From positions 1-14,859 of the IMG/VR virus record IMGVR_UViG_2675903606_000023: a stretch of 14,859 nt of DNA; one strand, 5' to 3'. The notes below the pieces were generated by a model. That model did no database searches, was not told the DNA's origin, and saw nothing but the letters and a program-made list of their open reading frames with translations. This stretch comes from a virus. Taxonomy: Duplodnaviria > Heunggongvirae > Uroviricota > Caudoviricetes. Position numbers and translations under genes: made by a program. This document shows, one piece after another, positions 1,395 through 14,859 of this stretch; position 1 is the stretch's first letter, and each line of letters begins with the position of its first letter.

Positions 1395-1649
1395 TTAACC
1401 GGAACTTGCATTTTTGGCACCTGGTTGTTTCTGGTTTTCGATCCATCGCATAATTTCTTCGATGTTGTACAGGCATTCACTGTAGTGCCCCGGATCACCT
1501 TCTACAGCGTAATGGCGGTATTCTTTTCCCTGCATCCATGACTTTCTTCTTGCCCGCTCAATGGTGCCAGGCTTTAGCCCTGTTGATGCAATGAGGACTC
1601 TCTCCGTACACCATTTGCTGGGGGTTATCTGATAGATGATTGTCTGCAT
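1395..1649 (-). CDS. xis: Excisionase-like small DNA-binding protein (Xis)
   Basis: 84-aa ORF immediately upstream of int on the same strand; AGGAG SD 6 nt upstream of ATG; sequence pattern (W...RW...GKEYRHY) resembles the winged-helix Xis family. Family call is from memory, not a search. Confidence 0.6.
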   Translation of the reverse strand: MQTIIYQITPSKWCTERVLIASTGLKPGTIERARRKSWMQGKEYRHYAVEGDPGHYSECLYNIEEIMRWIENQKQPGAKNASSG

Positions 1650-1805
1650 GCCAAGCTCCTAAAACGTTTATCCGCGGCAGTGGCACCACACTTCAAACAT
1701 TCGTCTCACAATTTCGCGACAGTAGAAACCGTCAACATCTCGCGTCAGGTCATAGCGACTGCCATAACGCTGGTGGACCCATAGTTCAAATGCTTTATTC
1801 ACTCT

Positions 1806-2048
1806 TCACTTCCTTTTCATGGCGCGTAATTTTTTCAGGTGAGCTTCCTGCTCTGTTTCTGCCAGTATTTGTCGGTATTCCTGGTGATCAATATGTTCAA
1901 ACTGGTTGTTGAATTCACTGATGCGTACTCGACCGGAGTGTCCGTCCATGCGTCGAAAGAACACTGAGTGCTCAGTGCTGCGAGTAATCACCACAGGGTA
2001 TCCGGTCCTGTCCGTGTATATTTGCCCGCGTTGAATAAGTGTGAACAT
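1806..2048 (-). CDS. Hypothetical phage protein (80 aa from ATG at 2048; ORF is open up to 2081)
   Basis: ORF with GGGGA SD about 7 nt upstream of ATG at 2048, which lies 4 nt after the stop of the upstream gene; no recognisable family. Confidence 0.45.
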   Translation of the reverse strand: MFTLIQRGQIYTDRTGYPVVITRSTEHSVFFRRMDGHSGRVRISEFNNQFEHIDHQEYRQILAETEQEAHLKKLRAMKRK

Positions 2049-2052
2049 GTGG

Positions 2053-2682
2053 TTATCCCCAGCGGCAAATCGCAAAAACAATCAGCGCGATCGACATTGC
2101 AACACCAACAATTGCAAATGCATCAGGCCAGGTCATTGATTCACCTCCTGCGGCGGCTCTGGTAGCTGCATCCAGAACAAGGCGTTCCCTAACCACGATA
2201 AACATTCGCTCACTACAGCTTATCCAACCATCCGGAGTTACCGGAGAGTTGCCGGGTTCTTTAATGTGCAAGCGAGGCTCACCATCTTTTGGTTCAGGCC
2301 ACTGGCGCTTCATGTTGATCTTCAATTTATCTTCCATAGCAGCGGTAATTTCAGCATCACTGATACCAGCACGGCGCTGTGCATCCCACAACAGGAACTG
2401 CATATCAGCCCACTCGCTGAGATCGTCAGGTTCGGCTGCGGCTTCCAGAGCCTCTTTTGAGAGATGTTTCAGCGGACCAATGGGGCCAACGCAGCCAAAT
2501 GTGGAGTCAGACCATTTGGCATGCTCGTGGCGAATCTGTTCGCGTTCCAGTGATGCCAGTGCAATTTTTAATGCGGTAAGCATGTTGTTTTGATCTTCAT
2601 CAAGTCCGAACGGTATTTCATCCCGTGCTGACTCAATGCTGGTAATCGTTTTCTGTAGCCATTCTTTGGTAATAGTGGTCAT
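2053..2682 (-). CDS. Hypothetical early protein, DUF550/MazG-like N-terminal region (tentative) with C-terminal hydrophobic segment
   Basis: 209-aa ORF, AGGAG SD 7 nt upstream of ATG; start lies 2 nt after the stop of the Ea22-like gene; C-terminal AFAIVGVAMSIALIVFAICRWG looks like a transmembrane anchor. The DUF550 assignment is recollection only. Confidence 0.5.
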   Translation of the reverse strand: MTTITKEWLQKTITSIESARDEIPFGLDEDQNNMLTALKIALASLEREQIRHEHAKWSDSTFGCVGPIGPLKHLSKEALEAAAEPDDLSEWADMQFLLWDAQRRAGISDAEITAAMEDKLKINMKRQWPEPKDGEPRLHIKEPGNSPVTPDGWISCSERMFIVVRERLVLDAATRAAAGGESMTWPDAFAIVGVAMSIALIVFAICRWG

Positions 2683-2683
2683 C

Positions 2684-3028
2684 TCACTCTCCTTCTATGC
2701 GAATACCAGCAGCAGTCAGTGCTGCATTGACCTCATCAGCGTAGTAGTACGTTAATCCACTTGATGATTTAGCCAGCTTGAATGGTTCTGGTAACTTCAC
2801 TGTGCGGGACTCCTGTTCGTCGATACGCTGTTTTGCTTCCTCCAGTTCATCCAGCAAATCAGCGATAATATCCACTTCACGATGACGGATTTCTCTCTTA
2901 AACGCAGCCAAAGCTGCATCACAATCCTGCTCAGCATTTGGACTGTCTGGATTTTCCTGATACCACGCCAGCGTCGATTGATAGTTTTGTGCCGCCTCAC
3001 GCAATGCCTGATAGTCAATCTTGCTCAC
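2684..3028 (-). CDS. Ead/Ea22-like protein
   Basis: 114-aa ORF starting at GTG with AGGAGG SD 6 nt upstream; N-terminal MSKIDYQALREAA... resembles lambdoid Ea22/Ead-like proteins; position between xis and the immunity region matches the lambda ea22 location. Confidence 0.55.
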   Translation of the reverse strand: MSKIDYQALREAAQNYQSTLAWYQENPDSPNAEQDCDAALAAFKREIRHREVDIIADLLDELEEAKQRIDEQESRTVKLPEPFKLAKSSSGLTYYYADEVNAALTAAGIRIEGE

Positions 3029-3329
3029 TGGCTGCCTCCTTTGCCGGGATTTCTAACTTTTGAGTGGTTGTATCAAATTCAAACAACTTAACCACGTCAT
3101 CAAACAGGACATAATCACCATCAGGATCTTCAGTCATATCTGCGCCACAATCCTGACCGCACGAGTCGCAACCATCCATATCAAGCTCGTATCGCTTCAG
3201 GTTTGCGATATTTGATAAATTCAGCGCCAGTACAGCCAGGTCATAAACCTCTTCGGCAGTGACATCGCTGTTCAGTCCCATTTCATGGCGATATATGATT
3301 TTTTCTACTCGTTGTTTTGTGATCGTCAT
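3015..3329 (-). CDS. Hypothetical acidic phage protein (start uncertain: TTG 3353, ATG 3329 or ATG 3281)
   Basis: ORF 3015..3353; the ATG at 3329 has an AAGAG/GGAG SD-like purine stretch upstream; 3' end overlaps the Ea22-like start by 14 nt; acidic, Cys-containing C-terminal half. Confidence 0.45.
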   Translation of the reverse strand: MTITKQRVEKIIYRHEMGLNSDVTAEEVYDLAVLALNLSNIANLKRYELDMDGCDSCGQDCGADMTEDPDGDYVLFDDVVKLFEFDTTTQKLEIPAKEAASEQD

Positions 3330-3600
3330 TTTTCTCTTCACTCCGATATACAAGGATTACTACACCCCCTCTGCTGATTGCGCGAGCTGGATCCCCTGGT
3401 TCCATGCCGTCAATTCCGAAGGCTTCGGAAAACGCATTCATTGCCTTCTGGCGTTCATCCTGCTTACGGCGTTTATTCCATTTTTTCAGGAACAACAGCG
3501 ACAGCCACCGTCCGCTGCAGAACACGATGTAAAAATAACCAAGGAGCGCCAGGCCGACATTCAGGGCCGTTTCTATGGTTAGTTGTGAGTCAGTTGCCAT
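3283..3600 (-). CDS. Small putative membrane protein (single N-terminal transmembrane helix, basic juxtamembrane segment)
   Basis: 105-aa ORF; N-terminal hydrophobic stretch LTIETALNVGLALLGYFYIVFCSG followed by KKWNKRRKQDERQK; overlaps neighbouring genes at both ends. Confidence 0.45.
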   Translation of the reverse strand: MATDSQLTIETALNVGLALLGYFYIVFCSGRWLSLLFLKKWNKRRKQDERQKAMNAFSEAFGIDGMEPGDPARAISRGGVVILVYRSEEKNDDHKTTSRKNHISP

Positions 3601-3838
3601 TTCTTACCTGTTTAAGTAACTGGTTGAACATAACACTTAGGGGATTGCTGTATCCAAACGGCAGATTGTTTACGCAGTACAGAATCATTTTGTTTTTTTC
3701 TCCAGTTCGTACTATTAACCCATTCCACAATAACCGTGATAATTCATTACTGATAGAAGTTGCGCTTCTTCCAAGTGCGAGGGATATATCTTCTCTACTG
3801 CAATCTGGATTTTCCTGGATATACTCGATAACGGTCAT
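3590..3838 (-). CDS. Small hypothetical protein with helix-turn-helix-like segment
   Basis: ORF 3590..3880; the ATG at 3838 has an AAGGGA SD about 6 nt upstream and lies just after the stop (3849) of the upstream gene; SREDISLALGRSATSISNELSRLL resembles a winged-helix recognition region. Confidence 0.5.
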   Translation of the reverse strand: MTVIEYIQENPDCSREDISLALGRSATSISNELSRLLWNGLIVRTGEKNKMILYCVNNLPFGYSNPLSVMFNQLLKQVRNGN

Positions 3839-3848
3839 GTGGTCCCTT

Positions 3849-4430
3849 TTACTTAATATCTGTTTCGGATTGCATGCCATGAGTATTCATTTCGTTAATA
3901 ATTTCATCCAGAAGGATTTCAAGCCCTTCTCGACCCATATCTGAAAGAATGAAACCTTTATCAGGGGAAGTAGTGAGCATTTTCTGATAAAGAAACAGCG
4001 CTCTTCCCATTCCTTCAGCTTCGCCGTATTTTTGAATTAAATTCCATTCAATATACTGTTGTAAGGCAAATCGAATGGGGCCGGGATATATCGTCATAAA
4101 CCCATACATCCCGTTATATACCACGGCGTGTTCAGTTGTTCCGTGTTCATTCAGGATATCAATTGTGCCGTTCTTGTCTTCTTCTTCGTTGATGAATGCC
4201 GTCACATACAACCATCGCCACTGAGCAACCTTCATCTCAACCGGAAGTTTACCCAGTAATCCTGCTTCGTCGGCTTGCGCCAGACACTGAAGGATACGTA
4301 AACCTCGCACATTAGGAGTATCGAATTCTCCGGCATCCAGACGACGTATGGCGTCGTGATAATCAATCGTCATACTGCCAGTTCGTATACCATTGGCTGT
4401 TGCTTCAGCCTGGAATTCATCGTATTGCAT
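3849..4430 (-). CDS. Hypothetical phage protein (193 aa), function unknown
   Basis: Long ORF with GAGGAA SD about 9 nt upstream of ATG at 4430; coding-like composition; no family recognised by eye. Confidence 0.55.
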   Translation of the reverse strand: MQYDEFQAEATANGIRTGSMTIDYHDAIRRLDAGEFDTPNVRGLRILQCLAQADEAGLLGKLPVEMKVAQWRWLYVTAFINEEEDKNGTIDILNEHGTTEHAVVYNGMYGFMTIYPGPIRFALQQYIEWNLIQKYGEAEGMGRALFLYQKMLTTSPDKGFILSDMGREGLEILLDEIINEMNTHGMQSETDIK

Positions 4431-4435
4431 GATAT

Positions 4436-4630
4436 TTATTCCTCATCTTCATCTTCATCTTCATCTGCTGGTGCAATAACGTCATATCCTGCCTTTTCTG
4501 CAATAAACAGGAATGTTGAAAGAGTTCCTACAAGTTCATCGTCATGAACATGGCGAATGAATATTACTTTCCCGTTTTTGATGGTCAGCAATATTCTGGT
4601 TTGTTCGTGTTCTGCTGTTTTCTGATGCAT
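4436..4630 (-). CDS. Small protein with poly-acidic C-terminal tail (…ADEDEDEDEE)
   Basis: 64-aa ORF, GGGAGA SD 6 nt upstream of ATG at 4630; the C-terminal tail is encoded by the (TCATCT)x4 repeat at 4443..4466. Confidence 0.5.
   Translation of the reverse strand: MHQKTAEHEQTRILLTIKNGKVIFIRHVHDDELVGTLSTFLFIAEKAGYDVIAPADEDEDEDEE
4443..4466. repeat. Hexanucleotide tandem repeat (TCATCT)x4 encoding an alternating Asp/Glu tail
   Basis: Four perfect tandem copies read directly from the sequence, in frame at the 3' end of the 64-aa ORF. Confidence 0.9.
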
Positions 4631-4632
4631 TA

Positions 4633-4746
4633 TTATCTCCCGTATGCTTTACGCAGAAATAAGCAGGCAATATGCATGTAATTTTCACCGTATTGTGCAA
4701 TAAGGCAGGCGGTCTTGTGTGATGCCATATTCTTTATAAAAGTCAC
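4633..4746 (-). CDS. Candidate small ORF (37 aa from GTG 4746; 31 aa from ATG 4728), not in the supplied ORF track
   Basis: GGAGG (4758..4754) lies 7 nt upstream of GTG at 4746; the reading frame runs to a TAA at 4635..4633, 2 nt before the ATG of the 64-aa gene. Translation: VTFIKNMASHKTACLIAQYGENYMHIACLFLRKAYGR. Confidence 0.25.
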   Translation of the reverse strand: MTFIKNMASHKTACLIAQYGENYMHIACLFLRKAYGR

Positions 4747-4824
4747 AATAAAGCCTCCTGTGGATTAAGGTTGTAACAATCCCCGGCGATAAAACCGCAA
4801 TAAACGTTCAGGGCATATTTGTTG

Positions 4825-5190
4825 TTATTGCGCTAATTCTTTTTCGGCAGCAGCTTTTGTATACTCACATGCAAAACTCAGAATTTCGCTGCCGAGTGTT
4901 TTCGTTTCGTGATTACTGGACATATGTAATACCTGTGTTGCATGCAATAAATGATAAACATTTACCGCAAATGAATCAGGCTCCAGACAAATGCCTTCGT
5001 AATTATCTTGCTGTGAGGTTGTTTCTGTCATTGCTCCTGAAGTGCATGCGAGCCTGTTTTTGACAATTCTCTTTTCTCTAATCACTATATCGGCAACATC
5101 TATTGCCTTTACAACCTCCGGGAGAAGTTCCGGGTTTGTATAATCAAAGTCATCAACATGGAGAACAGTTATGTTTTCGAACTTTTTCAT
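4825..5190 (-). CDS. Hypothetical phage protein (121 aa), function unknown
   Basis: ORF with AGGAAG SD about 4-5 nt upstream of ATG at 5190; no recognisable family. Confidence 0.55.
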   Translation of the reverse strand: MKKFENITVLHVDDFDYTNPELLPEVVKAIDVADIVIREKRIVKNRLACTSGAMTETTSQQDNYEGICLEPDSFAVNVYHLLHATQVLHMSSNHETKTLGSEILSFACEYTKAAAEKELAQ

Positions 5191-5318
5191 GGCTTCCTCA
5201 GCTGACTTATATGTTCTGCTATATAGCGAGTCTCAGAAGTGTTTTCATATTGAGACTGTTTCCGCAATGATTGATAAAAATGTTCGCATGTACCTTGAAG
5301 GGCGAAGCGGCGATTATG

Positions 5319-5867
5319 TCACCATTGGTATTGGTTCTTCCGCAGAAGAGCTTCGCGAGATAAGGGGCAAACTTGTTGAGATGCGTCATGGTGTTGCTGC
5401 TCCTCACTTTTTGGTTGCTCCGGAGGAGTAACCTCACCAGTTAACAGGCACATCGGATCGCAGCCAAGAATATTTGCCAGTGGGATAAGCATACTGATAG
5501 TTGGTTCATACTCTCCGCTCTCCCACTGGATGATAATTTCTTCATCGAGATCGAGCAGCCTGGCGAGTTCGGCGGTTGTTAAGCCGCAGGCTTCGCGTTG
5601 GGTGCGAAGGTTAACCAGCCAGCTTTCAGGGAAGGATTGTTTTTGTTGTGCAGGAGAAGCAGCAGATAGAGCATATTCATGGATAAATTCCATTACCTCA
5701 ATGCCCAGTTCCTTTGAGCGAGCACAATCCAGAAGATGGAATGTGCGTACAGCACTTAGCAAATTTGCAATATTTAATGCAAAGGAATCAAGTTCTAAGC
5801 CCTTAAGCGTAACACAGCCGCAGTTGATAAAATTAGTTGTTTCTGGAGTTGCTTTTAGTGTCTTCAT
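5319..5867 (-). CDS. Protein with C-terminal XRE-family helix-turn-helix domain and uncharacterised N-terminal domain (ORF open to TTG at 5897)
   Basis: HTH_XRE-like segment LRTQREACGLTTAELARLLDLDEEIIIQWESGEYEPTISMLIPLANILG in the C-terminal half; ATG at 5867 has a GGCGGA SD-like element upstream; first gene downstream of the PL-like promoter. Confidence 0.6.
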   Translation of the reverse strand: MKTLKATPETTNFINCGCVTLKGLELDSFALNIANLLSAVRTFHLLDCARSKELGIEVMEFIHEYALSAASPAQQKQSFPESWLVNLRTQREACGLTTAELARLLDLDEEIIIQWESGEYEPTISMLIPLANILGCDPMCLLTGEVTPPEQPKSEEQQHHDASQQVCPLSREALLRKNQYQW

Positions 5868-5920
5868 ATATCCGCCAACAATTTTAAATTGAATCAAATC
5901 AAGTTATAATTGATGGTGCG

Positions 5921-5949
5921 ATATTATGTTTTGGGAAACAGGCTGTCAA
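5921..5949 (-). promoter_or_regulatory. Candidate leftward early promoter (PL-like): -35 TTGACA, 17-bp spacer, -10 TAATAT
   Basis: Minus strand reads TTGACA (5949..5944), a 17-nt spacer, then TAATAT (5926..5921); flanked by two TCAA-N7-TTGA inverted repeats (5898..5914 and 5946..5960) that could be repressor operators. Confidence 0.55.
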
Positions 5950-5978
5950 GAAAAAATTGATATCGTATATTTCAGGCA

Positions 5979-6003
5979 GAAAAAAAACGGGCAAAGCCCG
6001 TTA
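5979..6003 (-). terminator. Rho-independent terminator downstream of cI
   Basis: On the minus strand: 7-bp stem AACGGGC/GCCCGTT with a 3-nt loop (6003..5987), followed by a run of 8 U; begins 10 nt after the cI stop codon. Confidence 0.75.
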
Positions 6004-6013
6004 AAATCAAAGA

Positions 6014-6703
6014 CTAACCAAATCTGTTTATGTTGAATGGTACTGATGAGATCACTTTAGACTGGATATAAAGCAGAGCTAACCCCTCTTTTTCGATGCT
6101 CCATGGTTGATAATTGGGGTTATCAGATAACACCATGATTTTGCTTCCAATTTTTTGAAGCCTTTTCACGTAGCATTCTCCATCAAAACAAAATGCATAA
6201 ATACCATCGCCATCAAAATAAGTTACTGTCTTATCAAGAAAAAGAAGGTCGCCAGGTGAGATTGTGGGAGCCATACTGTCTCCTCTGGCGTTACCTATTT
6301 CTATATTTTTGAATGCCCGATTTCCAACAAGACGTCGGGCATATTCAGGATCAAGTTCTATTGAGCGCACTACATCTATCAAGTCACCACGGACATGAGT
6401 TCCATCACCGCAACTAAACTCAACATCAAGGACATTAAATACGACGCTATCTGTTCTTGTCTGGTGTTTCTCTTGCGAAGAAAAGGTTGGTGAGGAGTCT
6501 TCACCTAAGAACCAGGATTGTGGATAACCGCTAATCTCTGATAAATGCGCGAGCTTATCACTCCGTGGAAATGTTTTTCCTGTTGTCCAGTACTGCACTG
6601 ATTGCGCACTCACACCTAACTTGCGGGCCAGTTGAGCCTGAGTCCATCCTTTTGCTTTCAGCATCGCGGCTATTCGATTTTCCGTGTTTTTGACGTTCTT
6701 CAT
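6014..6703 (-). CDS. cI: CI-like prophage repressor (N-terminal HTH, C-terminal S24 LexA-like peptidase domain)
   Basis: N-terminal HTH (RIAAMLKAKGWTQAQLARKLGVSAQSVQYW); C-terminal autocleavage motifs GDSMAPTI (Ser) and YVKRL (Lys); AGGA SD 7 nt upstream of ATG at 6703 (ORF open to TTG at 6709); divergent from a Cro-like gene. Confidence 0.85.
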   Translation of the reverse strand: MKNVKNTENRIAAMLKAKGWTQAQLARKLGVSAQSVQYWTTGKTFPRSDKLAHLSEISGYPQSWFLGEDSSPTFSSQEKHQTRTDSVVFNVLDVEFSCGDGTHVRGDLIDVVRSIELDPEYARRLVGNRAFKNIEIGNARGDSMAPTISPGDLLFLDKTVTYFDGDGIYAFCFDGECYVKRLQKIGSKIMVLSDNPNYQPWSIEKEGLALLYIQSKVISSVPFNINRFG

Positions 6704-6709
6704 GACCAA

Positions 6710-6836
6710 ATCCTGTGGGTTTCTTTACAAGGATAAATCTTTACTTGATTTTAGTGTATTCGATCCTTTTGCAACTTGCATGTTAATTTAAACTTGATGT
6801 ATTCTTGATTTATAAAGTTAATATTGGTGCTTTGTT
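6710..6836. promoter_or_regulatory. Divergent cI/cro intergenic control region (OR/PR/PRM equivalent) with repeated CTTGAT motifs
   Basis: 127-bp AT-rich spacer between divergent cI and cro-like genes; CTTGAT occurs at 6744..6749, 6793..6798 and 6804..6809 (the last two 11 bp apart); candidate -35/-10 hexamers present but not uniquely assignable by eye. Confidence 0.6.
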
Positions 6837-7127
6837 ATGGAAGGAAATGATTACGACAAACTTCGTGCATTAATTGCGCAAAATGCCATAGCGCGAAATC
6901 TTGGTGTGACGCCGCAAGCGGTGAATCAGTGGTTTTCAAAAAGCACAATTCCTGCTCGTTTCGTTTTACGAGTATGTGAAGTAGTTGCATGGAAGGTTAC
7001 GCCTCATGGCTTAAGGCCAGATCTTTATCCTCACCCTGAAGATGGAATTCCTAACTTGTTACGCAAAAGCCTAAATCCAAGTTCACCACACAGAGCGGAT
7101 GGAATACACGCAGGAGATAAACAATGA
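6837..7127 (+). CDS. Cro-like transcriptional regulator (YdaS/Cro-type HTH)
   Basis: 96-aa ORF divergent from cI; HTH segment IARNLGVTPQAVNQWFSKSTIP; pattern resembles the YdaS-type Cro analogues of Rac-like prophages. Confidence 0.7.
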   Translation: MEGNDYDKLRALIAQNAIARNLGVTPQAVNQWFSKSTIPARFVLRVCEVVAWKVTPHGLRPDLYPHPEDGIPNLLRKSLNPSSPHRADGIHAGDKQ

Positions 7128-7831
7128 ACACCGCAATTTTTAACGGCAAAGCATCCATGACCAGCGTTGAGATCGCAGAGCTGGTGGGAAGCCGACCAGA
7201 TAGTGTTAAGAGAACTATTGAAACACTGGCTAAAAAGGGAATCATCCAATTTCCACAGACTGTGGAAATTGAGAATAAACAATCACTTGGGCCTCGCCGA
7301 TTTTCTAGCGCGTATGTATTCGAAGGTGAACGAGGTAAGCGCGACAGCATCATTGTCGTCGCACAGCTCTGTCCTGAATTCACTGCTCGCCTGGTAGATC
7401 GCTGGCGCGAACTGGAAGAACAGATCCGTAAGCCAATGAGCGAAATCGAAATGGTTGCCGCGATGGCTCTTGAAGCAGTTCGTCAGCAGAAACGGATCAC
7501 TCAGGTGGAAGAAAAAGTCAGCCACGTTGCTGAAACAGTCGAGCAAATTAAAAAGGGCACTATTCGTGAGGGCTATGCCGGATATCGCCAACTGAAAGCA
7601 AAAACCGGTTTGTCAGATGATAAATGCCGCAATCTGGTGAACGCCTATCAGATTCCTACAGACACCCATGAGTTCATGACGCCGGACGGATTGTTGTCAC
7701 GTCGCGCAATTGTTGCTGTGGAACCGTTTATGGCTGCTTTTTATCGGGTTATGGAGGAAGCAGAACCGCGAGGGACTCGCTGGTATCACCCGAAAATGGG
7801 GTTATTTCAGGTTATTGGTTGGCAGCGGTGA
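7124..7831 (+). CDS. Phage regulatory protein with Rha/antirepressor-like N-terminal DNA-binding region (tentative)
   Basis: 235-aa ORF whose ATG overlaps the cro-like stop (ATGA at 7124..7127); GGAG SD 8 nt upstream; N-terminal SVEIAELVGSRPDSVKRTIETL resembles the Rha-family HTH signature. Confidence 0.55.
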   Translation: MNTAIFNGKASMTSVEIAELVGSRPDSVKRTIETLAKKGIIQFPQTVEIENKQSLGPRRFSSAYVFEGERGKRDSIIVVAQLCPEFTARLVDRWRELEEQIRKPMSEIEMVAAMALEAVRQQKRITQVEEKVSHVAETVEQIKKGTIREGYAGYRQLKAKTGLSDDKCRNLVNAYQIPTDTHEFMTPDGLLSRRAIVAVEPFMAAFYRVMEEAEPRGTRWYHPKMGLFQVIGWQR

Positions 7832-7854
7832 AAAAAAGCCGGGAGTAACCCGGC
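7831..7854 (-). terminator. Hairpin with U-tract on the minus strand (antisense-oriented intrinsic terminator) abutting the stop codon of the 235-aa gene
   Basis: GCCGGG (7838..7843), loop agtaa, CCCGGC (7849..7854); the plus strand has A7 immediately 5' of the stem (7831..7837), so the canonical U-tract is on the minus-strand transcript. Confidence 0.5.
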
Positions 7855-8053
7855 TCACTCAACATCAATAACGGGGAGCTGTTTCGCATAAAACGGCTCC
7901 GAAACATCCAAGAACAGTTCTAAAGATATCAGCAGCTATATGATCATTTCAAGACCAAATATTGATTCTGCAATTTCGGGACGTTACACTGTCTCCGCAC
8001 CTTATAAAGCGGGTGCCGGGGGTCGCAGCCCGGAATTGTCAACGGCGATATAT

Positions 8054-8073
8054 GACGCGCCAGCGTCTTTTTT
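8054..8073 (+). terminator. Candidate weak rho-independent terminator (tR1-like position)
   Basis: GACGC-gcca-GCGTC 5-bp GC-rich stem with tetraloop, followed by T6 (8068..8073), in the untranslated spacer downstream of the 235-aa regulator. Confidence 0.4.
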
Positions 8074-8239
8074 ATCGTCCGCGCTCACGCACGCCAGAAT
8101 TATGGTGGGCTGGGCAGGGGAGCCGAAAGGCTCGCCGGTCTCCGTTGACGCCGGTACTGCGAACCCTGTTCAGTCTGCCACCAGTGAGTTTCGCAGCTCC
8201 GGTGGTGGAAGTTTTCCACAGTCAACGGAGGCTGCCATC

Positions 8240-8602
8240 ATGGCTACTGTCCCAACTTCCCCATACCTGAAAATTGAAGTTGTCAACGGCAAGGCCGTTA
8301 TTTTCTCCCTGCATGTTGCCTGCCACTTTAAGCGAATGCACCAGAACATCGTTGACAAAATCGAGTATCTGAACTGCTCACGCGAGTTTTTTACCCGCAA
8401 TTTCATACCGGGTACTTATCACATCTACGGTGACTCCCTGCGTGGTTATTACATCACTCTTGATGGCCTGATGATGCTTCAGCTTGGGTTAAGTCTGCGC
8501 ACAATGCGGTACTACGAGAGCTGCATTGAGGCATTCCATGAAGCTGAAACCAGCCTGAATCATACAGCTTTCCGCTGTAATCAATGGGAGGTGCGCCCAT
8601 GA
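8240..8602 (+). CDS. Rha-family phage regulatory protein (120 aa from ATG 8240)
   Basis: GGAGG SD 8 nt upstream of ATG at 8240; segments FKRMHQNIVDKIEYL and YHIYGDSLRGYYITLDGLMMLQLGLS match the Rha-family pattern as I remember it. The upstream in-frame extension to 7940 has non-coding-like composition and no SD. Confidence 0.55.
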   Translation: MATVPTSPYLKIEVVNGKAVIFSLHVACHFKRMHQNIVDKIEYLNCSREFFTRNFIPGTYHIYGDSLRGYYITLDGLMMLQLGLSLRTMRYYESCIEAFHEAETSLNHTAFRCNQWEVRP

Positions 8603-8832
8603 TTCGCCGCCTCGTTAATTCTCTGTATCACCGATACAACCGTTGCCCCCGTGTGGGGCAGTGGTTCGCCACCAGCGACGGTCGCGTTCTGCGGGTTTGC
8701 CTGGTCAGCACCGAAAGCCAGAAAGTTGTGTGTGAATTACTGGGGCGTAACTACACCATCAGTTACCCACTAGTGGCGTTTCAGTCCGGAAAAATGTTTA
8801 AACGCCTGGGAGGTGGCTATGCGTCCGTCTGA
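8599..8832 (+). CDS. Small hypothetical protein (77 aa)
   Basis: ATG at 8599 overlaps the stop of the preceding gene (ATGA) and is preceded by GGGAGG at a 7-nt spacing; Cys- and Arg-rich; no family recognised. Confidence 0.45.
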   Translation: MIRRLVNSLYHRYNRCPRVGQWFATSDGRVLRVCLVSTESQKVVCELLGRNYTISYPLVAFQSGKMFKRLGGGYASV

Positions 8833-9712
8833 TCTTCTGCTCGATTTTGGGCATCCGGTTGCTTATTACCCTGGGCTCGTTAAATACATGGGAAGTCCGC
8901 ACGCTGTTATTTTCTTTGGTCAGATTTTTTACTGGCAGGATAAAGCACATGCAGCGGAAGGCGTACATAAAACGCGTGAAGAGATACAACACGAAACCGG
9001 ACTTACATTTGAACAACAGGCTGTAGCGCGTAAGCATCTTGTGTCCAGAGGCATTTTGGTTGAAACCAACAAGCGTCTTGAGCACAAAATGTTCTACCGT
9101 ATAGATTGTGAGCGCCTTAATGAAATTATCAATGAAAACAATCAGTTTTCCCGAAATGGGGAAACCCGTTTTCGGGAAACTGTAAAACCCAATTTCGCGG
9201 AGGAGGGAAAGCCTTCACCGCGGACACGGGAAACCCCTCGCCGCGGTGAAGGGAAAACCAATTTCGATCTTACAGAGAATACAACAGAGATTACTTCAGA
9301 GAGTACTACAGAGAGTAAAAACACTATTGGCGCATCCGCTGACGCGTCTGCACCAGCGCGTTCTGCCCGACAGGAATATTCACCGGAATTTGAACAGGCA
9401 TGGCAGGAATATCTCAAACGTGCTGGTGGCAATTCCAAGTCAGCAGCCTTCAAAGCCTGGAAAGCACGTATCAGGGAGGGAATAAAACCGGAGAACATGC
9501 TTGATGGCGTGAAGCGGTATGCCGCCTGGGTGCGTGTCTCTGGAAATACCGGTACCCAGTTCGTGAAGCAGGCGTCGACGTTCTTTGGACCCGATCGTCA
9601 TTTCGAGGAATCCTGGCAACAGCCAGCAGCCCCCGGAGGTGGGCGGGGCAAAAGCCTCCCGATCTCGGGATTCAGTGAACAGGACTACGGCTCAACGAAC
9701 TTCAACTGGTGA
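8819..9712 (+). CDS. Replication initiator / replisome organiser (lambda O-like functional position) with internal origin-like repeats
   Basis: GGGAGG SD 5 nt upstream of ATG at 8819 (ORF open to GTG at 8813); N-terminal winged-helix-like region; low-complexity linker encoded by iteron-like DNA (9147..9316); followed by a DnaC-like loader and DnaB-like helicase. Confidence 0.7.
   Translation: MRPSDLLLDFGHPVAYYPGLVKYMGSPHAVIFFGQIFYWQDKAHAAEGVHKTREEIQHETGLTFEQQAVARKHLVSRGILVETNKRLEHKMFYRIDCERLNEIINENNQFSRNGETRFRETVKPNFAEEGKPSPRTRETPRRGEGKTNFDLTENTTEITSESTTESKNTIGASADASAPARSARQEYSPEFEQAWQEYLKRAGGNSKSAAFKAWKARIREGIKPENMLDGVKRYAAWVRVSGNTGTQFVKQASTFFGPDRHFEESWQQPAAPGGGRGKSLPISGFSEQDYGSTNFNW
9147..9316. 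repeat. Iteron-like repeat cluster (GGGAAAC-type repeats and palindromes) followed by ACAGAGA-type repeats: candidate replication origin inside the initiator gene
   Basis: GGGAAA(A/G)C at 9159, 9174, 9205, 9228 and 9251; palindromic arms TTTTCCCGAAA/TTTTCGGGAAA and CACCGCGG/CCGCGGTG flank two of the copies; ACAGAGA-like repeats at 9271..9316. Confidence 0.55.
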
Positions 9713-9731
9713 TTTTGTGGGGAGGGTGAAA

Positions 9732-10622
9732 ATGACTAATTTCCTGAACAAACAACACATGCAACACGACAAAGCGCAGTTACTTAACCGCAAGGCAGAC
9801 CTGGAAGAGGAGCTGGCATTTGTCCGTGGCGGAAAGCGTCCGTGGCGCTGTGAGCATTGGGTGCAAAGCACTGAGACGGTGTCCTGCGGGAAACACGGAA
9901 AATACACGCGCTATGTGCTGACTGGCCCGGATGTAAGGGGGAAAGCTGTCAAACGGGTGTCCGGTTGCCTGTCCTGCCTCAGTGAGGAGCTGGGCCGCGT
10001 GTATGACGAATTACGCGCCCTGAAGGTTCGTGAATTACTCGATCAGGCCGGTATTGCCCGCCGGTTCCAGGACTGTGAGTTTGAGAATTATCAGGCGGTG
10101 AATACTGACGCACAGAAAAACCTTGAAGCCTGTCAGCGCTATGCCGCTTCCTGGAAGAAATGTCTCGCTGCAGGCACCAGCATGGTCATGATTGGCAATT
10201 GTGGTACCGGTAAAAATCACCTGGCTGTATCAATGGCAAAAAATATTATTCGCCACCACCAGGCAACCATAGAAATCACGGATGTAATGCGGCTTACCCG
10301 TGCGGTGAAAAATACCTGGCGCCACAACTCTGAGCGCACTGACGATGAAGTGATTAATCATTTTGCATCGCTGGATCTGCTTATCATCGATGAGGTTGGT
10401 GTGCAGTTCGGTACGCCTGCGGAGATAACCATCCTGCAGGAAATCATAAATGCGCGTTACGAAAGCGTTTTACCGACAATTTTGATCAGCAACCTGACGT
10501 TTGAACAGCTTAAGGAATCCATTGGTGAACGGATTGTGGATCGCGTTACTGATGGTGGGCGTAACTGCCTGGTGTTTGGTTGGGAAAGCTACCGCGCGCA
10601 TATCAGAGGTGTGGCAGCATGA
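9732..10622 (+). CDS. DnaC-like helicase loader (IstB/DnaC-family AAA+ ATPase) with N-terminal Cys-rich zinc-ribbon-like region
   Basis: Walker A GNCGTGKNHLA and Walker B LLIIDEVG; Cys cluster CEHW..CGKHG..CLSCL; GGAGGG SD 5 nt upstream of ATG at 9732 (ORF open to 9585). Confidence 0.8.
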   Translation: MTNFLNKQHMQHDKAQLLNRKADLEEELAFVRGGKRPWRCEHWVQSTETVSCGKHGKYTRYVLTGPDVRGKAVKRVSGCLSCLSEELGRVYDELRALKVRELLDQAGIARRFQDCEFENYQAVNTDAQKNLEACQRYAASWKKCLAAGTSMVMIGNCGTGKNHLAVSMAKNIIRHHQATIEITDVMRLTRAVKNTWRHNSERTDDEVINHFASLDLLIIDEVGVQFGTPAEITILQEIINARYESVLPTILISNLTFEQLKESIGERIVDRVTDGGRNCLVFGWESYRAHIRGVAA

Positions 10623-12019
10623 CAAACCCGACAAATCCGGCGTGGCGTAATGATGACCTGGAAGGAGCTGTCATCGGTGCGTTTTTTCTGCGTGGGGCTG
10701 ATCCGGAAGTGATGGATATTCTGGCCACGCTTCCGGCGGATGTCTTTTTCGTGCGTCAGTACAGGGATATTTACGCGGGAATTTGCAGACAGGCCCGTGT
10801 ATCCGGCGTCATTGACCCCGTACTGCTGTGCAATGAGATGCCGGAACTTGCCCCGGTGATTACCGACACCGGACGCAAAACCTGGGTGAAGTCTTCACTG
10901 GAGCACTATGTCGCAGCGTTGCGGCGTAATGCCGTACTGCGCGATGCAGAAAAAACACTGACTGAAGCATTACAGAATTTACGTGATGCGTATACCTGTG
11001 AAGCAGCCGAGGATGCCCTGAAGGATGCGCAGAACATGATGGCCTCACTGTCGACCGGAAAGGGCGTCATTCAGCCGGTTCACATTGATGATGTCCTTCC
11101 AGAAGTGGTCGACCGTGTTGAATGCCGCAATCAGGGACTGGAGAAATCCAGGGCGCTGATGACCGGTATTGATGAGCTGGACGCAAAAACGGGCGGTATG
11201 GAGCCAGGCGACCTGGTATTCATTGCGGCTCGTCCTTCGATGGGGAAAACCGAACTTGCGCTGGATATCATCGACAAGGTGACTGAGCAGGGGCATGGCG
11301 TGCTTCTGTTCACCATGGAGATGGCGAACATTCAGATTGGTGAACGTATGGTGTCTGCTGCCGGGGGAATGCCGGTATCCCGTCTTAAGTCAGTTGCCCG
11401 TTTTGAAGACGAAGACTGGGCACGTTTCTCACAGGGCGTGGGACGAATGACGGGGCGTAATATCTGGATGGTGGACCAGGCAAACCTGACCATTGATGAG
11501 ATATGTGCAACTACGAGGCACCACCGGATGAAACACCCGGAAACGGCGCTGGTGGTGGTCGATTACCTCGGCCTGATTAAAACCCGCAGCATGGGGCGTC
11601 ACGACCTTGCTGTGGGGGAAATCTCAAAGGGACTAAAAAGCCTGGCAAAATCCGGCGGTTTTCCGCTGATTGCTCTGAGCCAGCTCTCCCGCGGTGTGGA
11701 ATCCAGACCCAATAAACGCCCCATGAACTCGGACCTGAAAAACTCAGGGGAAATAGAGGCGGATGCAGACATCATTCTGATGCTTTACAGGGATGAGGTG
11801 TACAACCCGGAGACACAGGCGAGAGGCATAGCAGAAATCAACATCACGAAACAGCGTAATGGTACGCTGGGTACCATTTACCGGCGTTTTCATAACGGGC
11901 ATTTTCTGCCTGTGGACCAGGAGAGTGCCCGGGTTCTTTCCACTCCCATGACGCCGGGCAATCCGCGCAGATACAGCAATAACCGCATGTCGGGTAGTAA
12001 AACGGAGCGTTTATTTTGA
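10619..12019 (+). CDS. DnaB-like replicative DNA helicase
   Basis: 467 aa from ATG at 10619, which overlaps the loader stop (ATGA); DnaB-type N-terminal domain and RecA-like C-terminal domain with Walker A ARPSMGKTELAL and Walker B-like VVVDYLGLI. Confidence 0.9.
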   Translation: MTNPTNPAWRNDDLEGAVIGAFFLRGADPEVMDILATLPADVFFVRQYRDIYAGICRQARVSGVIDPVLLCNEMPELAPVITDTGRKTWVKSSLEHYVAALRRNAVLRDAEKTLTEALQNLRDAYTCEAAEDALKDAQNMMASLSTGKGVIQPVHIDDVLPEVVDRVECRNQGLEKSRALMTGIDELDAKTGGMEPGDLVFIAARPSMGKTELALDIIDKVTEQGHGVLLFTMEMANIQIGERMVSAAGGMPVSRLKSVARFEDEDWARFSQGVGRMTGRNIWMVDQANLTIDEICATTRHHRMKHPETALVVVDYLGLIKTRSMGRHDLAVGEISKGLKSLAKSGGFPLIALSQLSRGVESRPNKRPMNSDLKNSGEIEADADIILMLYRDEVYNPETQARGIAEINITKQRNGTLGTIYRRFHNGHFLPVDQESARVLSTPMTPGNPRRYSNNRMSGSKTERLF

Positions 12020-12273
12020 ACAACAGAACAACCACTGTTTCACCGGAACAACTTCGTCGGCAGGCGCAGGAGATGCTTCGTTGTGCTGAACAGATGGAAA
12101 AAACGAGCGTGAAAAAAGATACGCTCCGCAAGCAGCTTACTCCGGCGCTTCGTGATCTGCTGCAGGCAAAACACCGCACACAAAAGGCGGTGGATGAGCT
12201 GGTGGATTGCGTGGCGGAACTGGAAGGACAGGTAAGCCAGTTTGAAATACTGGTGAAGGAGTTTACTGCGTGA
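12016..12273 (+). CDS. Hypothetical coiled-coil protein (85 aa), TTG start overlapping the helicase stop
   Basis: TTG at 12016 overlaps the TGA of the helicase gene (TTGA); GGAG 8 nt upstream; charged, helix-rich composition. Confidence 0.45.
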   Translation: MNNRTTTVSPEQLRRQAQEMLRCAEQMEKTSVKKDTLRKQLTPALRDLLQAKHRTQKAVDELVDCVAELEGQVSQFEILVKEFTA

Positions 12274-12318
12274 TGGCTGAATTTTTTCTTCTGCGCTCAT
12301 GCAATACCGTTCGCTGAG

Positions 12319-13314
12319 GTGACCGTGAGAGCACTACTGACCCCTGAAATTGCCCCGCGTATGGGGATCGTATTGTTCAGGCCCGGTTCAGAGCTGATGC
12401 CCCTGTTTATGCAGGGGCGTGTCCTGCTGGAGCCTGAGCCGGAACGTTATTCATCTTTTGCCAGTGGTGCCGTTCCGGCGGCATCACAACCGCTGGCGGA
12501 TGATCCTGCCGTTCGGGCCGTGTTCCGCAATGAGGCAGTGATCCGTCGTGCTGGTGGCGTGGAATGTCTTGAAAGCTGGTTACTTCGTGAAAAGGGCTGT
12601 CAGTGGCCTCATTCCAACTGGCACAGCGAGAACATGACCACAATGCGACACGCTCCGGGCGCAATCCGTCTGTGCTGGCACTGCGATAACCAGCTGCGCG
12701 ATCAGTTCACGGAACGGCTGGAATCAATGGCAACGGATAACTGTGCCCGCTGGGTGTTGTCTGTTGTGCGTCGGGATCTCGGTTTTGATGACAGTCACGT
12801 TGTGACAATGCCGGAACTGTGCTGGTGGCTGGCTCGTAATGACCTGGCTGATGCCTTACCGGAAAGTGCAGCCCGTAAGGCACTGAGATTACCGAAGCCT
12901 GTTGTGCCGTCTGTCACCCGGGAGAGTGACCTTGTTCCTTCGGTTCCTGCCACCAGCATTATCCAGGATAAAGCGAAAAAGGTGCTGGCGCTGAAAGTGG
13001 ATCCAGAGTCGCCGGAGTCTTTTATGTTACGCCCAAAACGTCGTCGCTGGGTTAATGAAAAGTACACGCGCTGGGTTAAGACACAGCCGTGTGCATGTTG
13101 TGGTAAGCCAGCCGACGATCCTCATCACCTGATTGGTCATGGTCAGGGTGGAATGGGTACAAAAGCGCATGACCTTTTTGTGTTGCCTTTGTGCAGAAAA
13201 CACCATGACGAACTGCATGCGGATACCGTGGCATTTGAAGAGAAGTATGGTTCCCAACTGGAGCTGATATTTCGTTTTATCGATCGCGCGCTGGCGATTG
13301 GTGTGCTGTCCTGA
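12319..13314 (+). CDS. DUF968-like protein with C-terminal HNH-like Cys/His motif (putative nuclease); start uncertain
   Basis: 331-aa ORF from GTG at 12319; C-terminal CACCGKPADDPHHLIGHGQGGMGTKAHDLFVLPLCRKHHDELH; located immediately upstream of Q, as in Qin-type prophages. Confidence 0.6.
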   Translation: MTVRALLTPEIAPRMGIVLFRPGSELMPLFMQGRVLLEPEPERYSSFASGAVPAASQPLADDPAVRAVFRNEAVIRRAGGVECLESWLLREKGCQWPHSNWHSENMTTMRHAPGAIRLCWHCDNQLRDQFTERLESMATDNCARWVLSVVRRDLGFDDSHVVTMPELCWWLARNDLADALPESAARKALRLPKPVVPSVTRESDLVPSVPATSIIQDKAKKVLALKVDPESPESFMLRPKRRRWVNEKYTRWVKTQPCACCGKPADDPHHLIGHGQGGMGTKAHDLFVLPLCRKHHDELHADTVAFEEKYGSQLELIFRFIDRALAIGVLS

Positions 13315-13331
13315 TTTTGTGGAGAAAGTTG

Positions 13332-13712
13332 ATGCGTGATATTCAGATAGTTCTTGAACGCTGGGGGGCATGGGCTGCAAGTGGTAACACCGGGGTGGAC
13401 TATTCTCCGATCGCTGCCGGATTCAAAGGACTTTTACCATCTGCCACTAAACCACGTCCGGCCTGCTGCGATGATGACGGACTTATCATTGAAAACTGTC
13501 TTGCTCGTCTGAAGCAGAAAAAACCTGAGGAGTATTCGCTTCTCATTGCTCATTATTTGTTGCGAATATCAAAAAGACAGATAGCCAGGACGAGAAAGAA
13601 AAGCGAAAAAGCAATACGAATTGAGATGCAGATAGCCGAAGGGTTTATTGACGGATGTTTGTCTGTGCTGGGGGTAAGACTGGAGATGGACGACTGGCTG
13701 CTAAAAAAGTAA
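13332..13712 (+). CDS. Late-gene antitermination protein Q (QuuD-like family)
   Basis: 126 aa from ATG at 13332 (GGAG SD 7 nt upstream; ORF open to TTG at 13317); MRDIQIVLERWGAWAA...IAAGFKGLL...CCDDD...EGFIDGCLSVLGVRLEMD matches the QuuD-type Q pattern from memory. Confidence 0.6.
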   Translation: MRDIQIVLERWGAWAASGNTGVDYSPIAAGFKGLLPSATKPRPACCDDDGLIIENCLARLKQKKPEEYSLLIAHYLLRISKRQIARTRKKSEKAIRIEMQIAEGFIDGCLSVLGVRLEMDDWLLKK

Positions 13713-13767
13713 AAAATGATTAGTGCGGTCCGCAAAAAGTATGTCAGTATGTTAAGAGTGGTTACTT

Positions 13768-13788
13768 CGCCCGCGAGCGGGTTTTTTT
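13768..13788 (+). terminator. Rho-independent terminator about 55 nt downstream of Q (tR'-like)
   Basis: GC-only stem CCCG/CGGG with tetraloop CGAG (13770..13781), followed by T7 (13782..13788). Confidence 0.6.
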
Positions 13789-13910
13789 ATGGCTGAAATC
13801 GGTCCAGTACAGTAAACGTGCTGGTGGCGGTGAATACCTGTCTTTCAGCTTGCTGGCTTTTTCGACAAGAGTTATTGGTGTGTCACGTTAACCGAAAAAG
13901 GGAAAAAGAC

Positions 13911-14108
13911 ATGCTGAAACAGCAGGATATGACAGAAACCGCCAGAGTGGTGTTTAATGAATTAAGCGTCACCGAACCGGCGACAGTCGGGGAGATTGCG
14001 CAGAATACTTACCTTTCACGCGAACGCTGTCAGTTAATACTGACCCAACTTGTTATGGCGGGTCTGGCAGACTATCAGTTCGGTTGTTACAGACGCCTTC
14101 CGCAGTGA
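13911..14108 (+). CDS. Small winged-helix/HTH-like protein (65 aa)
   Basis: AAGGG SD 8 nt upstream of ATG at 13911 (ORF open to GTG at 13818 without SD); ATVGEIAQNTYLSRERCQLILTQLVMAGL resembles an HTH recognition region; bracketed by intrinsic terminators on both sides. Confidence 0.5.
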   Translation: MLKQQDMTETARVVFNELSVTEPATVGEIAQNTYLSRERCQLILTQLVMAGLADYQFGCYRRLPQ

Positions 14109-14118
14109 AGGCTTTTTT
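14095..14118 (+). terminator. Rho-independent terminator overlapping the stop codon of the small wHTH gene
   Basis: 6-bp stem GCCTTC/GAAGGC with 6-nt loop (14095..14112), followed by TTTTTTATTT. Confidence 0.65.
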
Positions 14119-14259
14119 ATTTGTGGTAAATGGGCGGCTGGTGGGTGTTAGGGGCACTCACCAGCCATCTGCTCATGCGTTGTGGTCACAAGCAAACCTC
14201 AGGCCCATCTGCTTTGCGCAAAAGCGGTATGAGCCTATCAGAGAAGTGCTTATTGATCT

Positions 14260-14859
14260 ATGGCTAATACTGTAAAAATATCCAGTTGTGAGTTAATCAA
14301 CGCCGACTGCCTGGAATTTATCCGGTCGTTACCCGAAAATTCTGTTGACCTGATAGTCACGGACCCGCCGTACTTTAAAGTGAAGCCTGAGGGCTGGGAT
14401 AACCAGTGGAAGGGCGACGATGATTACCTGAAGTGGCTGGACCAGTGTCTGGCGCAGTTCTGGCGGGTGCTGAAACCTGCCGGAAGTCTTTACCTGTTCT
14501 GTGGTCATCGCCTGGCATCTGATATCGAAATCATGATGCGTGAACGCTTCAATGTGCTGAACCATATTATCTGGGCGAAGCCGTCCGGACGCTGGAACGG
14601 GTGCGACAAGGAAAGCCTGCGGGCGTATTTTCCGGCCACAGAACGCATTCTGTTCGCGGAACATTATCAGGGGCCGTATCGTCCGAAAGATGATGGCGAT
14701 GAGGCGAAGGGCAGGGCACTGAAACAGCATGTGATGGCCCCGCTGATTTCTTACTTTCGTGATGCGCGTGCTGCTCTTGGGATAACGGCAAAACAGATTG
14801 CAGATGCCACAGGAAAGAAAAACATGGTGTCGCACTGGTTCAGTGCCAGTCAGTGGCAG
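14260..14859 (+). CDS. DNA methyltransferase (N6-adenine or N4-cytosine class, DPPY motif), 5' part only; continues beyond the window end
   Basis: Open frame from ATG at 14260 (first ATG after an in-frame TGA at 14254..14256) to the window edge with no stop; translation contains SVDLIVTDPPY, resembling YhdJ-like beta-class amino-MTases; absent from the ORF track because it is incomplete. Confidence 0.8.
   Translation, partial: MANTVKISSCELINADCLEFIRSLPENSVDLIVTDPPYFKVKPEGWDNQWKGDDDYLKWLDQCLAQFWRVLKPAGSLYLFCGHRLASDIEIMMRERFNVLNHIIWAKPSGRWNGCDKESLRAYFPATERILFAEHYQGPYRPKDDGDEAKGRALKQHVMAPLISYFRDARAALGITAKQIADATGKKNMVSHWFSASQWQ

Follow-up and report, generated by a model that had tools for sequence, protein, structure and literature searches.

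What does a stable hairpin do when it lies between a terminator and a phage DNA methyltransferase (MTase) gene and lacks the U tract of a terminator itself? The question is raised by a stretch of 14,859 nucleotides of caudoviricete DNA (IMG/VR record IMGVR_UViG_2675903606_000023, positions 1 to 14,859; hereafter the window), which is 100% identical to a lambdoid prophage of Escherichia coli B19374 (locus L001; a window coordinate is the L001 coordinate minus 1201). Upstream of the MTase gene, the original prediction, made from the sequence alone, had noted a long palindrome and a 9-bp direct repeat, and had offered three readings: an operator, an element of RNA processing or stability, or a translational control structure. 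Here we find that the palindrome is the upper part of P1, the first helix of a structured leader of ~130 nt (~14130-14259, + strand), and we propose that this conserved cis-acting leader probably masks the ribosome-binding site (RBS) of the MTase, keeping its translation low or conditional.

The hairpin is the first helix of a conserved leader

The palindrome itself is as first described: GGCTGGTGGGTG (14136-14147) pairs with CACTCACCAGCC (14155-14166) in a 12-bp stem with one G·U pair (G14144·U14158), closing a 7-nt loop, TTAGGGG (14148-14154), and the structure stands between a terminator-like hairpin with a T run (14095-14112) and the MTase ATG at 14260. On the + strand of the 14.9-kb window no other hairpin combines 12 bp or more with at most one G·U pair and a loop of 3-10 nt; by chance, according to first-order Markov simulations, a mean of 0.11 would be expected on both strands together. 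The 51 nt from 14128 to 14178 fold with an energy of -30.7 kcal/mol (z = -6.1). With nine G-C pairs among its 12 bp the stem has the G+C richness of an intrinsic terminator, but that assignment was rejected, since the stem runs into AUCUGCUCAUG with no U run and a terminator scan that found 14095-14112 passed over it. The earlier statement that this is no canonical terminator therefore holds, ATCTGCTCATG directly following the stem in the window and AUNNGCUCAU following it in enterobacterial homologues.

The direct repeat fared less well. CCATCTGCT does occur exactly twice in the window (14165-14173 and 14205-14213, + strand), but the second copy is disrupted by 1-nt deletions or substitutions in most homologues. 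Exact 9-mer pairs no more than 60 nt apart number 10 in the window against 3.4 in simulations, and the CCATCTGCT pair is unremarkable. Because they are not conserved, the repeats have no detectable role; we rejected them as iterons or binding sites, such repeats also being judged not over-represented.

A larger fold, reaching to the start codon, had been missed. RNA folding of the leader, named beforehand as a check, gave the arrangement P1 + P2(P3(P4)) in the RNAfold minimum free energy (MFE) folds of the window and of the Trabulsiella, Morganella and Proteus leaders, and RNAfold returned the same architecture for Gilliamella. All helices are on the + strand. Below the palindrome, which forms P1-upper (14136-14147 with 14155-14166), P1 continues into P1-lower, where AUGGGC (14130-14135), part of an invariant AAUGGGCG block, pairs with GCUCAU (14171-14176). 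The two parts are separated on the 3′ side by a 4-nt bulge, AUCU (14167-14170), of which AU is invariant in the alignments and the last two bases vary. P1 as a whole thus has 6 + 12 bp, to which two U·G pairs may be added at its end, or ~18-20 bp. In P2, the 5′ strand (14184-14194) consists of GGUCA (P2a, 14184-14188), a bulged C and AAGCA (P2b, 14190-14194), and the 3′ strand (14247-14258) of UGCUU (P2b, 14247-14251), AU and the invariant UGAUC (P2a, 14254-14258), part of an invariant GATC.ATG. Enclosed by P2 are P3, formed by AGGCCCA (14201-14207) and UGAGCCU (14230-14236) and followed by a conserved unpaired AUCAGAG (14237-14243), and the P4 hairpin CUGCUUU-GCGCA-AAAGCGG (14209-14227; strands 14209-14215 and 14221-14227). 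The P4 core GCUUU/AAAGC is near-invariant, and its apical part varies in Proteus and Morganella.

Conservation in related phages, which the original prediction had named as a check, extends to the entire intergenic leader and not to the hairpin alone. This emerged from 80 MTase loci, retrieved without bias by searching the full MTase protein against one genome per species, of which the 170 nt upstream were compared. The leader stands directly before the MTase in Escherichia, Kosakonia, Enterobacter, Klebsiella, Citrobacter, Kluyvera, Buttiauxella, Erwinia, Mixta, Rosenbergiella, Proteus and Morganella, and a diverged copy with the same architecture occurs in Gilliamella. A covariance model made from a 40-sequence alignment identified 47 full-length copies at 110-176 bits, every one ending at the MTase ATG, and at least 105 of 121 IMG/VR hits contain the leader with the MTase start after it. 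The 600-nt region containing the leader is present in 2,381 of 5,426 complete E. coli genomes, with up to 8 copies per genome, and many Shiga toxin 2 (Stx2)-converting phages carry leader and MTase in the late transcript, between Q and stx2. Nucleotide identity to the window is 0.67-0.81 for the leader against 0.64-0.83 for the first 300 nt of the MTase gene, which encode the catalytic N-terminus, so that the two are equally well conserved, as under purifying selection. Set against the upstream gene, the leader was the better conserved of the two in 10 of 11 cases, the exception being SfV.

Covariation analysis, likewise named in advance, supports the pairing. In the model-fitted alignment 12 of the 40 pairs changed on both sides, compared with 6.0±1.5 in shuffles (0 of 500) and 2-7 with slid partners, and 94.4% of cells were paired. 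An alignment made with MAFFT only, and so not fitted to the structure, gave 92.4% paired cells and 11 such pairs against 5.4±1.4. Compensatory changes were found in 6 of the 12 pairs of P1-upper (97.3% of cells paired) and in 4 of the 10 pairs of P2, for example AAGCG/CGCUU, AAGCA/UGCUU and, in Proteus, GGA/UCC; P3 shows a G-C to A-U change in Proteus and Morganella. The 3′ strand of P1-lower varies between GCUCAU, GCCCGU, GCUUAU and GCCCAU and still pairs (97.9% of cells). The arms of P1-upper are wholly replaced and still complementary in Proteus (GACTGTAAAAGTG/CACCTTTACAGTC; in another Proteus, GACAG..GGATG/CATCC..CTGTC) and in Gilliamella (GACTGATACATG/CATGTAGCAGTC), each 3′ arm variant matching its own 5′ arm, and the loop changes in both length and sequence (UUAGGGG, UUGGUAG, UUAGCGG, UUGUAG, CUACUAA and others). 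A further 120 IMG/VR contigs were gathered by the left-arm pattern, a selection bias that fixes the left arm; their right arms are highly variable with complementarity kept, ranging from CACCCACCAGCC, which pairs perfectly, through CACCTGCCAGCC, with two wobbles, to CACCTGTCAGTC and CACCTATCAGCC. Some right arms have 13 nt with one bulged base, in the form CACCC[N]RCCAGCC, and a T-to-C change in the left arm is met by G in the right.

The kind of mismatch tolerated identifies the strand. G·U cells exceed A·C cells in P1 (84 vs 11), P2 (38 vs 1) and P3 (12 vs 1), which argues that the structure is maintained in the + strand RNA, the same strand as the MTase; P1 also folds with -30.7 kcal/mol on the + strand vs -20.4 kcal/mol on the - strand (z -4.4).

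These observations bear on the first of the three original readings, in which the palindrome would be a DNA operator for a dimeric regulator. The gene order in L001 is Q antiterminator (13332-13712), a 65-amino-acid (aa) open reading frame (ORF) at 13911-14108 and the MTase from 14260, and either the 65-aa protein, which resembles a winged helix, or a helix-turn-helix (HTH)-like insert of the MTase could be such a regulator. A 12-bp inverted repeat with a 7-bp spacer beside a small winged-helix-like gene, a homologue of which lies upstream of the MTase in 54 of the 80 loci, would suit this role. However, in Proteus and Gilliamella the two arms have changed together into sequences that are entirely different, wobbles (the 84 G·U cells of P1) break the DNA symmetry in a large share of sequences, an extra bulged base is common in one arm, and the spacer varies. 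Moreover, 14 loci have the full leader and no detectable homologue of the 65-aa gene, which rules out the winged-helix protein as an obligate partner of the leader, and no sigma-70-like promoter for the MTase was found on either strand of 13300-14859. A conserved TGTGRAAAT block was considered as an extended -10 element and rejected for its variable spacing and poor fit. An operator is thus very improbable.

Equally far-fetched is the reading of the hairpin as part of a small coding ORF, either a 45-aa ORF (14130-14267) or a leader peptide MGGWWV..., with conservation at the protein level or translational coupling. The ATG at 14130 is near-invariant and the stop codon (14265-14267) overlaps the MTase start region in the window, but the frame is not conserved: in most genera a TAG within the P1 loop closes it after 7 codons, the ORF lengths found are 7, 18, 21, 33 and 45 codons, and indels shift the frame. 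There is no Pfam match and no adequate Shine-Dalgarno (SD) sequence before the ATG, which is itself buried in P1-lower. Both the 45-aa ORF and a 63-aa ORF were rejected as unconserved.

No family was found at the leader when the window was scanned with Rfam 15 at gathering thresholds, and permissive Rfam scans of the E. coli, Trabulsiella and Proteus leaders gave chance matches only, the best at 18 bits against thresholds of 36-44. Literature searches returned no account of a leader or riboswitch for M.EcoGII-type genes. As a cis-regulatory mRNA leader the element is of a familiar kind; as an RNA family it is new, and it would lengthen the list of cis-regulatory RNA families of phages by one.

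Predicted occlusion of the methyltransferase start

The MTase gene (+ strand, a coding sequence in L001; the window end cuts the gene, leaving its 5′ part at 14260..14859) encodes a beta-class N6_N4_Mtase domain (PF01555, E 3e-44) with a DPPY motif at residues 35-38. Its product is 89% identical to the MTase of phage 1720a-02, which has been called very similar to M.EcoGII (Murray et al. 2018, PMC5778455). The likeness to the 1720a-02 enzyme, PF01555 and the DPPY motif make the protein a probable member of the M.EcoGI/GII family. Enzymes of this type methylate adenine in any sequence context, and M.EcoGII is unexpressed in lysogens and deleterious under constitutive expression (PMC5778455).

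No canonical SD sequence precedes the MTase AUG. The sole complementarity to the anti-SD before the AUG is offered by the invariant UGAUC at -6 to -2 (14254-14258; -5.3 kcal/mol), whereas the duplexes of other window genes with the 16S tail range from -1.5 to -15 kcal/mol and are mostly stronger. The 3′ tail of 16S rRNA is GAUCACCUCCUUA. Within P2a, UGAUC is paired with GGUCAC or GAUCAC, and GGUCAC resembles the GAUCAC of that tail; from this likeness the 5′ strand of P2a is a putative anti-SD mimic. In the predicted folds of 45 homologues, positions -12 to -2 are on average 73% paired. The same upstream element pairs in Gilliamella with AUGACC, start codon included, and MTase homologues without this leader have an ordinary AAGGA or GAGAGGA SD sequence. 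A local GGCCA/UGGCC hairpin in Erwinia endophytica (L151) was considered as an independent replacement of P2a and rejected, as the MFE fold does not support it.

Just past the AUG, MTase codons 4-10 (14269-14287, + strand) contain a near-invariant ACTGT...ACAGT/CCAGT, synonymous positions included, which forms a small hairpin in most genera, a weak one in the E. coli type. The hairpin could be a fifth helix, and the start codon would then be sandwiched between it and P2.

We propose that the leader acts within the Q-dependent late operon, where it would limit MTase translation even when late transcription passes both terminators (13766-13790 and 14095-14120). P2 would hide UGAUC, the weak SD-like element, by pairing it with the 16S-like GGUCAC. 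P1 would be a structural module in which pairing matters and sequence does not; it would hold the invariant AUGGGCG away from an alternative partner, GCCCA, and could also serve as a nuclease-resistant boundary or an entry site for RNase III. As in RBS-sequestering leaders, the element lies on the same strand as the gene, directly 5′ of it and linked to it across genomes, and a covariation-supported helix, P2, covers the SD and start region. The comparative analysis shows conservation, covariation, strand, linkage to the MTase and a predicted occlusion of the initiation region. Of the RNA-level roles named in the original prediction (processing, stability or translational control), the comparative data support their common premise, a + strand RNA structure in the MTase leader; it is the choice among them that we infer.

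Several points weigh against this proposal. Repression is drawn from predicted pairing only, so that the direction and size of the effect on translation, like the specific role of P1, belong to the model, and the leader could equally enhance translation or serve other ends. The covariation derives mostly from the Proteus/Morganella clade, and independent events are fewer than the cell counts. Several unpaired blocks (AAUGGGCG, GCCCA, an AUCAGAG-like block and GAUC) are invariant, which a simple masking helix does not explain. An Hfq-bound RNA of the opposite strand has been published inside the leader. Finally, P1 persists in Photorhabdus and Xenorhabdus though the P2-P4 domain is replaced, the P1-like hairpin of Xenorhabdus being followed by a U-rich run and looking like a terminator, and it persists in phiSTEC1575-type phages in which another gene has replaced the MTase. 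Because P1 is kept where P2-P4 or the MTase is replaced, it may have an autonomous role.

Masking of an RBS by a leader has precedents in ROSE and fourU RNA thermometers, in the expression platforms of riboswitches and in the inert primary transcripts of hok and tisB. The MTase leader resembles these in that an anti-SD-like GGUCAC pairs with UGAUC beside the AUG and the product is harmful if over-made, and an antisense, Hfq-bound RNA reported at the locus recalls type I toxin-antitoxin systems. Unlike them, it has no Rfam match, its SD is non-canonical and its product is an enzyme rather than a small toxin. Among lambdoid phages, the leader of the lambda N gene forms, between nutL and the start of N, a large hairpin that is sensitive to RNase III, and two alternative folds of the lambda cIII mRNA decide whether its RBS is open. 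The MTase leader may be compared with both as a lambdoid mRNA leader with a long hairpin and with structure around the initiation region, which would set how strongly the gene is translated; it differs from them in showing no sequence or covariance-model similarity, in belonging to a Q-dependent late operon and not to pL or the early genes, and in its proposed control of a DNA MTase.

In restriction-modification systems the MTase genes are under the control of C proteins, of antisense RNAs or of the MTase itself through autogenous HTH domains. Tight control of an MTase, often with a small HTH-type gene just upstream, is common to those systems and the present locus. In contrast to them, the phage enzyme is an orphan without an endonuclease, the conserved element acts as RNA structure rather than as a C-box-like DNA operator, and the small gene is dispensable for the presence of the leader. 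The leader fold offers a handle on how phages time and limit a dangerous anti-restriction enzyme, and on the processing of the 5′ part of the Shiga-toxin late transcript. It is also a practical point for the expression of M.EcoGII-type enzymes from their native sequence.

Processing, switching and antisense alternatives

The persistence of P1 in other settings gives some weight to a different reading, in which P1 is mainly an RNA processing or stability element, that is, an RNase III substrate or a nuclease-resistant hairpin that parts the messages of the 65-aa ORF and the MTase. R-sites of phage T7 such as R1.1 are hairpins of about two turns between the genes of a polycistronic transcript; they have an asymmetric bulge or internal loop and lack a U tract. 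P1 is comparable: at 18-20 bp it has the length of an RNase III site, about two helical turns and mostly regular, it has an asymmetric 4-nt bulge of which the first two bases, AU, are invariant, it lacks a U tract, and its shape is kept over its sequence, the stem being free to change while paired and the loop variable, as shape recognition would have it. Cleavage at P1 is on this analogy putative. P1 differs from R1.1 in its connection to another conserved domain, which extends to the start codon, and in having an invariant 5′ flank. The lower stem is also short for such a role (6 bp), and a site recognised by shape only would not need the invariant AAUGGGCG. We regard processing as the main function of P1 as possible, with less expectation than RBS masking; the two are compatible rather than exclusive, as cleavage could remodel the leader and activate translation.

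The invariant unpaired blocks could instead point to a true switch, a riboswitch or a leader responsive to a protein, the ribosome or the MTase, in which UGGGC (14131-14135) would toggle between GCUCAU and GCCCA (14203-14207). Pairing with GCUCAU would form P1-lower and leave the RBS masked by P2, and pairing with GCCCA would break P3 and P2 and free the RBS. UGGGC and GCCCA are invariant in 47 sequences whereas the local partner GCUCAU varies, and RNAalifold chose the long-range UGGGC:GCCCA pairing. When this pairing was forced in 45 homologues it cost +3.2 kcal/mol on average (range 0-8.6), the start region became less paired and P2 opened, which makes a switch plausible in energy terms. On the other side, invariant columns are incapable of showing covariation, a 5-nt complement within ~130 nt arises by chance in about 1/8 of cases, and the Rfam scans matched no known riboswitch model. 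We consider such a switch unlikely. The same low expectation attaches to its most elaborate form, a two-state riboregulator dedicated to promiscuous phage MTases, in which AUGGGCG would switch partners and, in lysogens, an antisense RNA, EcOnc49, would add a further lock. The switch might be triggered when RNase III cuts at the P1 bulge, when the MTase or the winged-helix protein binds, or by a ligand of the S-adenosylmethionine/S-adenosylhomocysteine (SAM/SAH) type. If true, the two-state leader and EcOnc49 would make up a toxin-antitoxin-like control circuit for a DNA-modifying enzyme.

EcOnc49 is the opposite-strand RNA mentioned above, a reproducible Hfq-CRAC peak (3/5 data sets) on the minus strand of the Sakai prophage Sp9, reported without northern blot confirmation (Tree et al. 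2014, Table S2, PMC4104026). Transferred from Sakai NC_002695.2 (~1772900-1772944), the peak lies at approximately 14179..14224 on the - strand of the window, a placement that corrects for a shift of +134 to +138 between genome versions, determined from the published EcOnc03 and AsxR sequences, and assumes no indel within 1.7 kb. The functional RNA might be an Hfq-binding antisense RNA with the complement of P1 as its 3′ hairpin, silencing the MTase message by pairing. The peak is just 5′ of the P1 complement on the minus strand, and the minus-strand hairpin, at the energy given above, is also stable. Against this, the wobbles show a structure that is kept on the + strand and degraded on the - strand, the promoter scan of 13300-14859 found no promoter-like site on either strand, with no convincing conserved -35/-10 pair for a minus-strand promoter within the first 90 nt of the MTase gene, and the minus-strand hairpin is followed by GCCCAUUUACC, with no U tail; multi-copy mapping of the peak is also possible. 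The wobble asymmetry, with neither a promoter nor a U tail found, speaks for a conserved structure that itself serves the + strand. There may be an antisense RNA at the leader, but that it explains the conserved fold seems to us more doubtful even than a switch.

Genomic setting and mosaic joints

The leader is preceded by two hairpins of the late operon. A strong terminator-like hairpin with a T run (13766-13790, + strand) stands ~55 nt past the Q gene. It is probably the tR′ that belongs to the late promoter, and a short PR′ RNA, which we take to be the counterpart of StxS of Stx phages, would then probably end there. StxS reportedly ends at the first terminator after PR′ and does not overlap the leader. 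The second, P0 (14095..14120, + strand; -8.9 kcal/mol), consists of the hairpin at 14095-14112 found by the terminator scan and its T run, and in loci of the E. coli type it resembles a terminator. The 65-aa ORF has its stop codon in the loop or on the 3′ side of this conserved hairpin (GCCTTC..GAAGGC). In other genera the P0-equivalent (GCCTCC..GGAGGC; L134, L137, L149 and others; ~1835-1860) often has no U tract; a U tract follows only in E. coli-type copies and a few others, and elsewhere the hairpin has no terminator features. The 65-aa ORF itself (13911..14108, + strand), annotated as a coding sequence in L001 and a frequent partner gene upstream of the leader, has weak TrmB/MarR winged-helix similarity, under the Pfam cut-off.

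The anti-sRNAs AsxR and AgvB (PMC4104026), like StxS, share the neighbourhood of the leader, past Q and PR′ in the lambdoid prophages of pathogenic E. coli. They were rejected as its identity on grounds of location, since they are found beyond the moron genes and tRNAs, in Sakai Sp9 for instance at a distance of 1.7 kb. They have neither overlap with nor likeness to the leader. After the MTase, and past the window, L001 has genes for a RelE-family toxin and its HTH partner, a gene of the TerB family, a complete DUF3927 gene and one for a nanS-p-like esterase (L001 16632-18230); in Stx phages, tRNA genes and stx2 fill this position.

Variant loci show how this region is rearranged. In phiSTEC1575-Stx2k (L004 1815-1939), and also in L031, L103 and L125, P0 and P1 are kept, the sequence diverges after ~14182 and the gene in the place of the MTase encodes an HTH domain; the phiSTEC1575-type right arm, CACCTGTCAGTC, makes four wobble pairs and zero mismatches. 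In L200, L201, L206, L185 and L187 (Proteus, Xenorhabdus), MTase homologues with a different N-terminus and without the P2-P4 domain are preceded by a terminator-like hairpin and then a canonical SD sequence.

Other E. coli loci match the window, by megablast, only up to 14148, the end of the left arm. Past the left arm, L002, L005 and ~8 IMG/VR contigs have a 24-aa ORF annotated as a ‘DUF3927 family protein’, and GCTGGTGGCGGGTGTGGTGG, which is close to the left arm GCTGGTGGGTGT, is found in the full-length DUF3927 genes that these prophages carry farther downstream. The 24-aa ORFs (L002 3319-3393; L005; among the IMG/VR loci, for example, L015, L052 and L071) are chimeric, with the 5′ edge of the leader, P1 left arm included, as their first 25 nt and the 3′ half of DUF3927 as the rest. 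These loci are best read as short-homology deletions (GCTGGTGG..GGGTGT) that removed the MTase and the accessory/moron gene cluster. We rejected a mosaic or recombination joint as the origin of the hairpin, as deletion accounts for the shared left arm and not for the existence of the hairpin.

Elsewhere in the window, the one other hairpin with at least 12 bp and no more than one G·U pair has a 3-nt loop and lies at ~7246-7272 on the minus strand, in the region of a Rha-family gene. The Rfam scan at gathering thresholds placed isrK (58.7 bits) and the C4 antisense RNA (78.8 bits) next to each other at 7997-8073 and 8098-8185 (+ strand), where they overlap the 5′ end of an ‘ash family protein’ gene (7940-8602), and we read the pair as a P1/P7-type c4-like immunity/antirepressor control module inside a lambdoid prophage.

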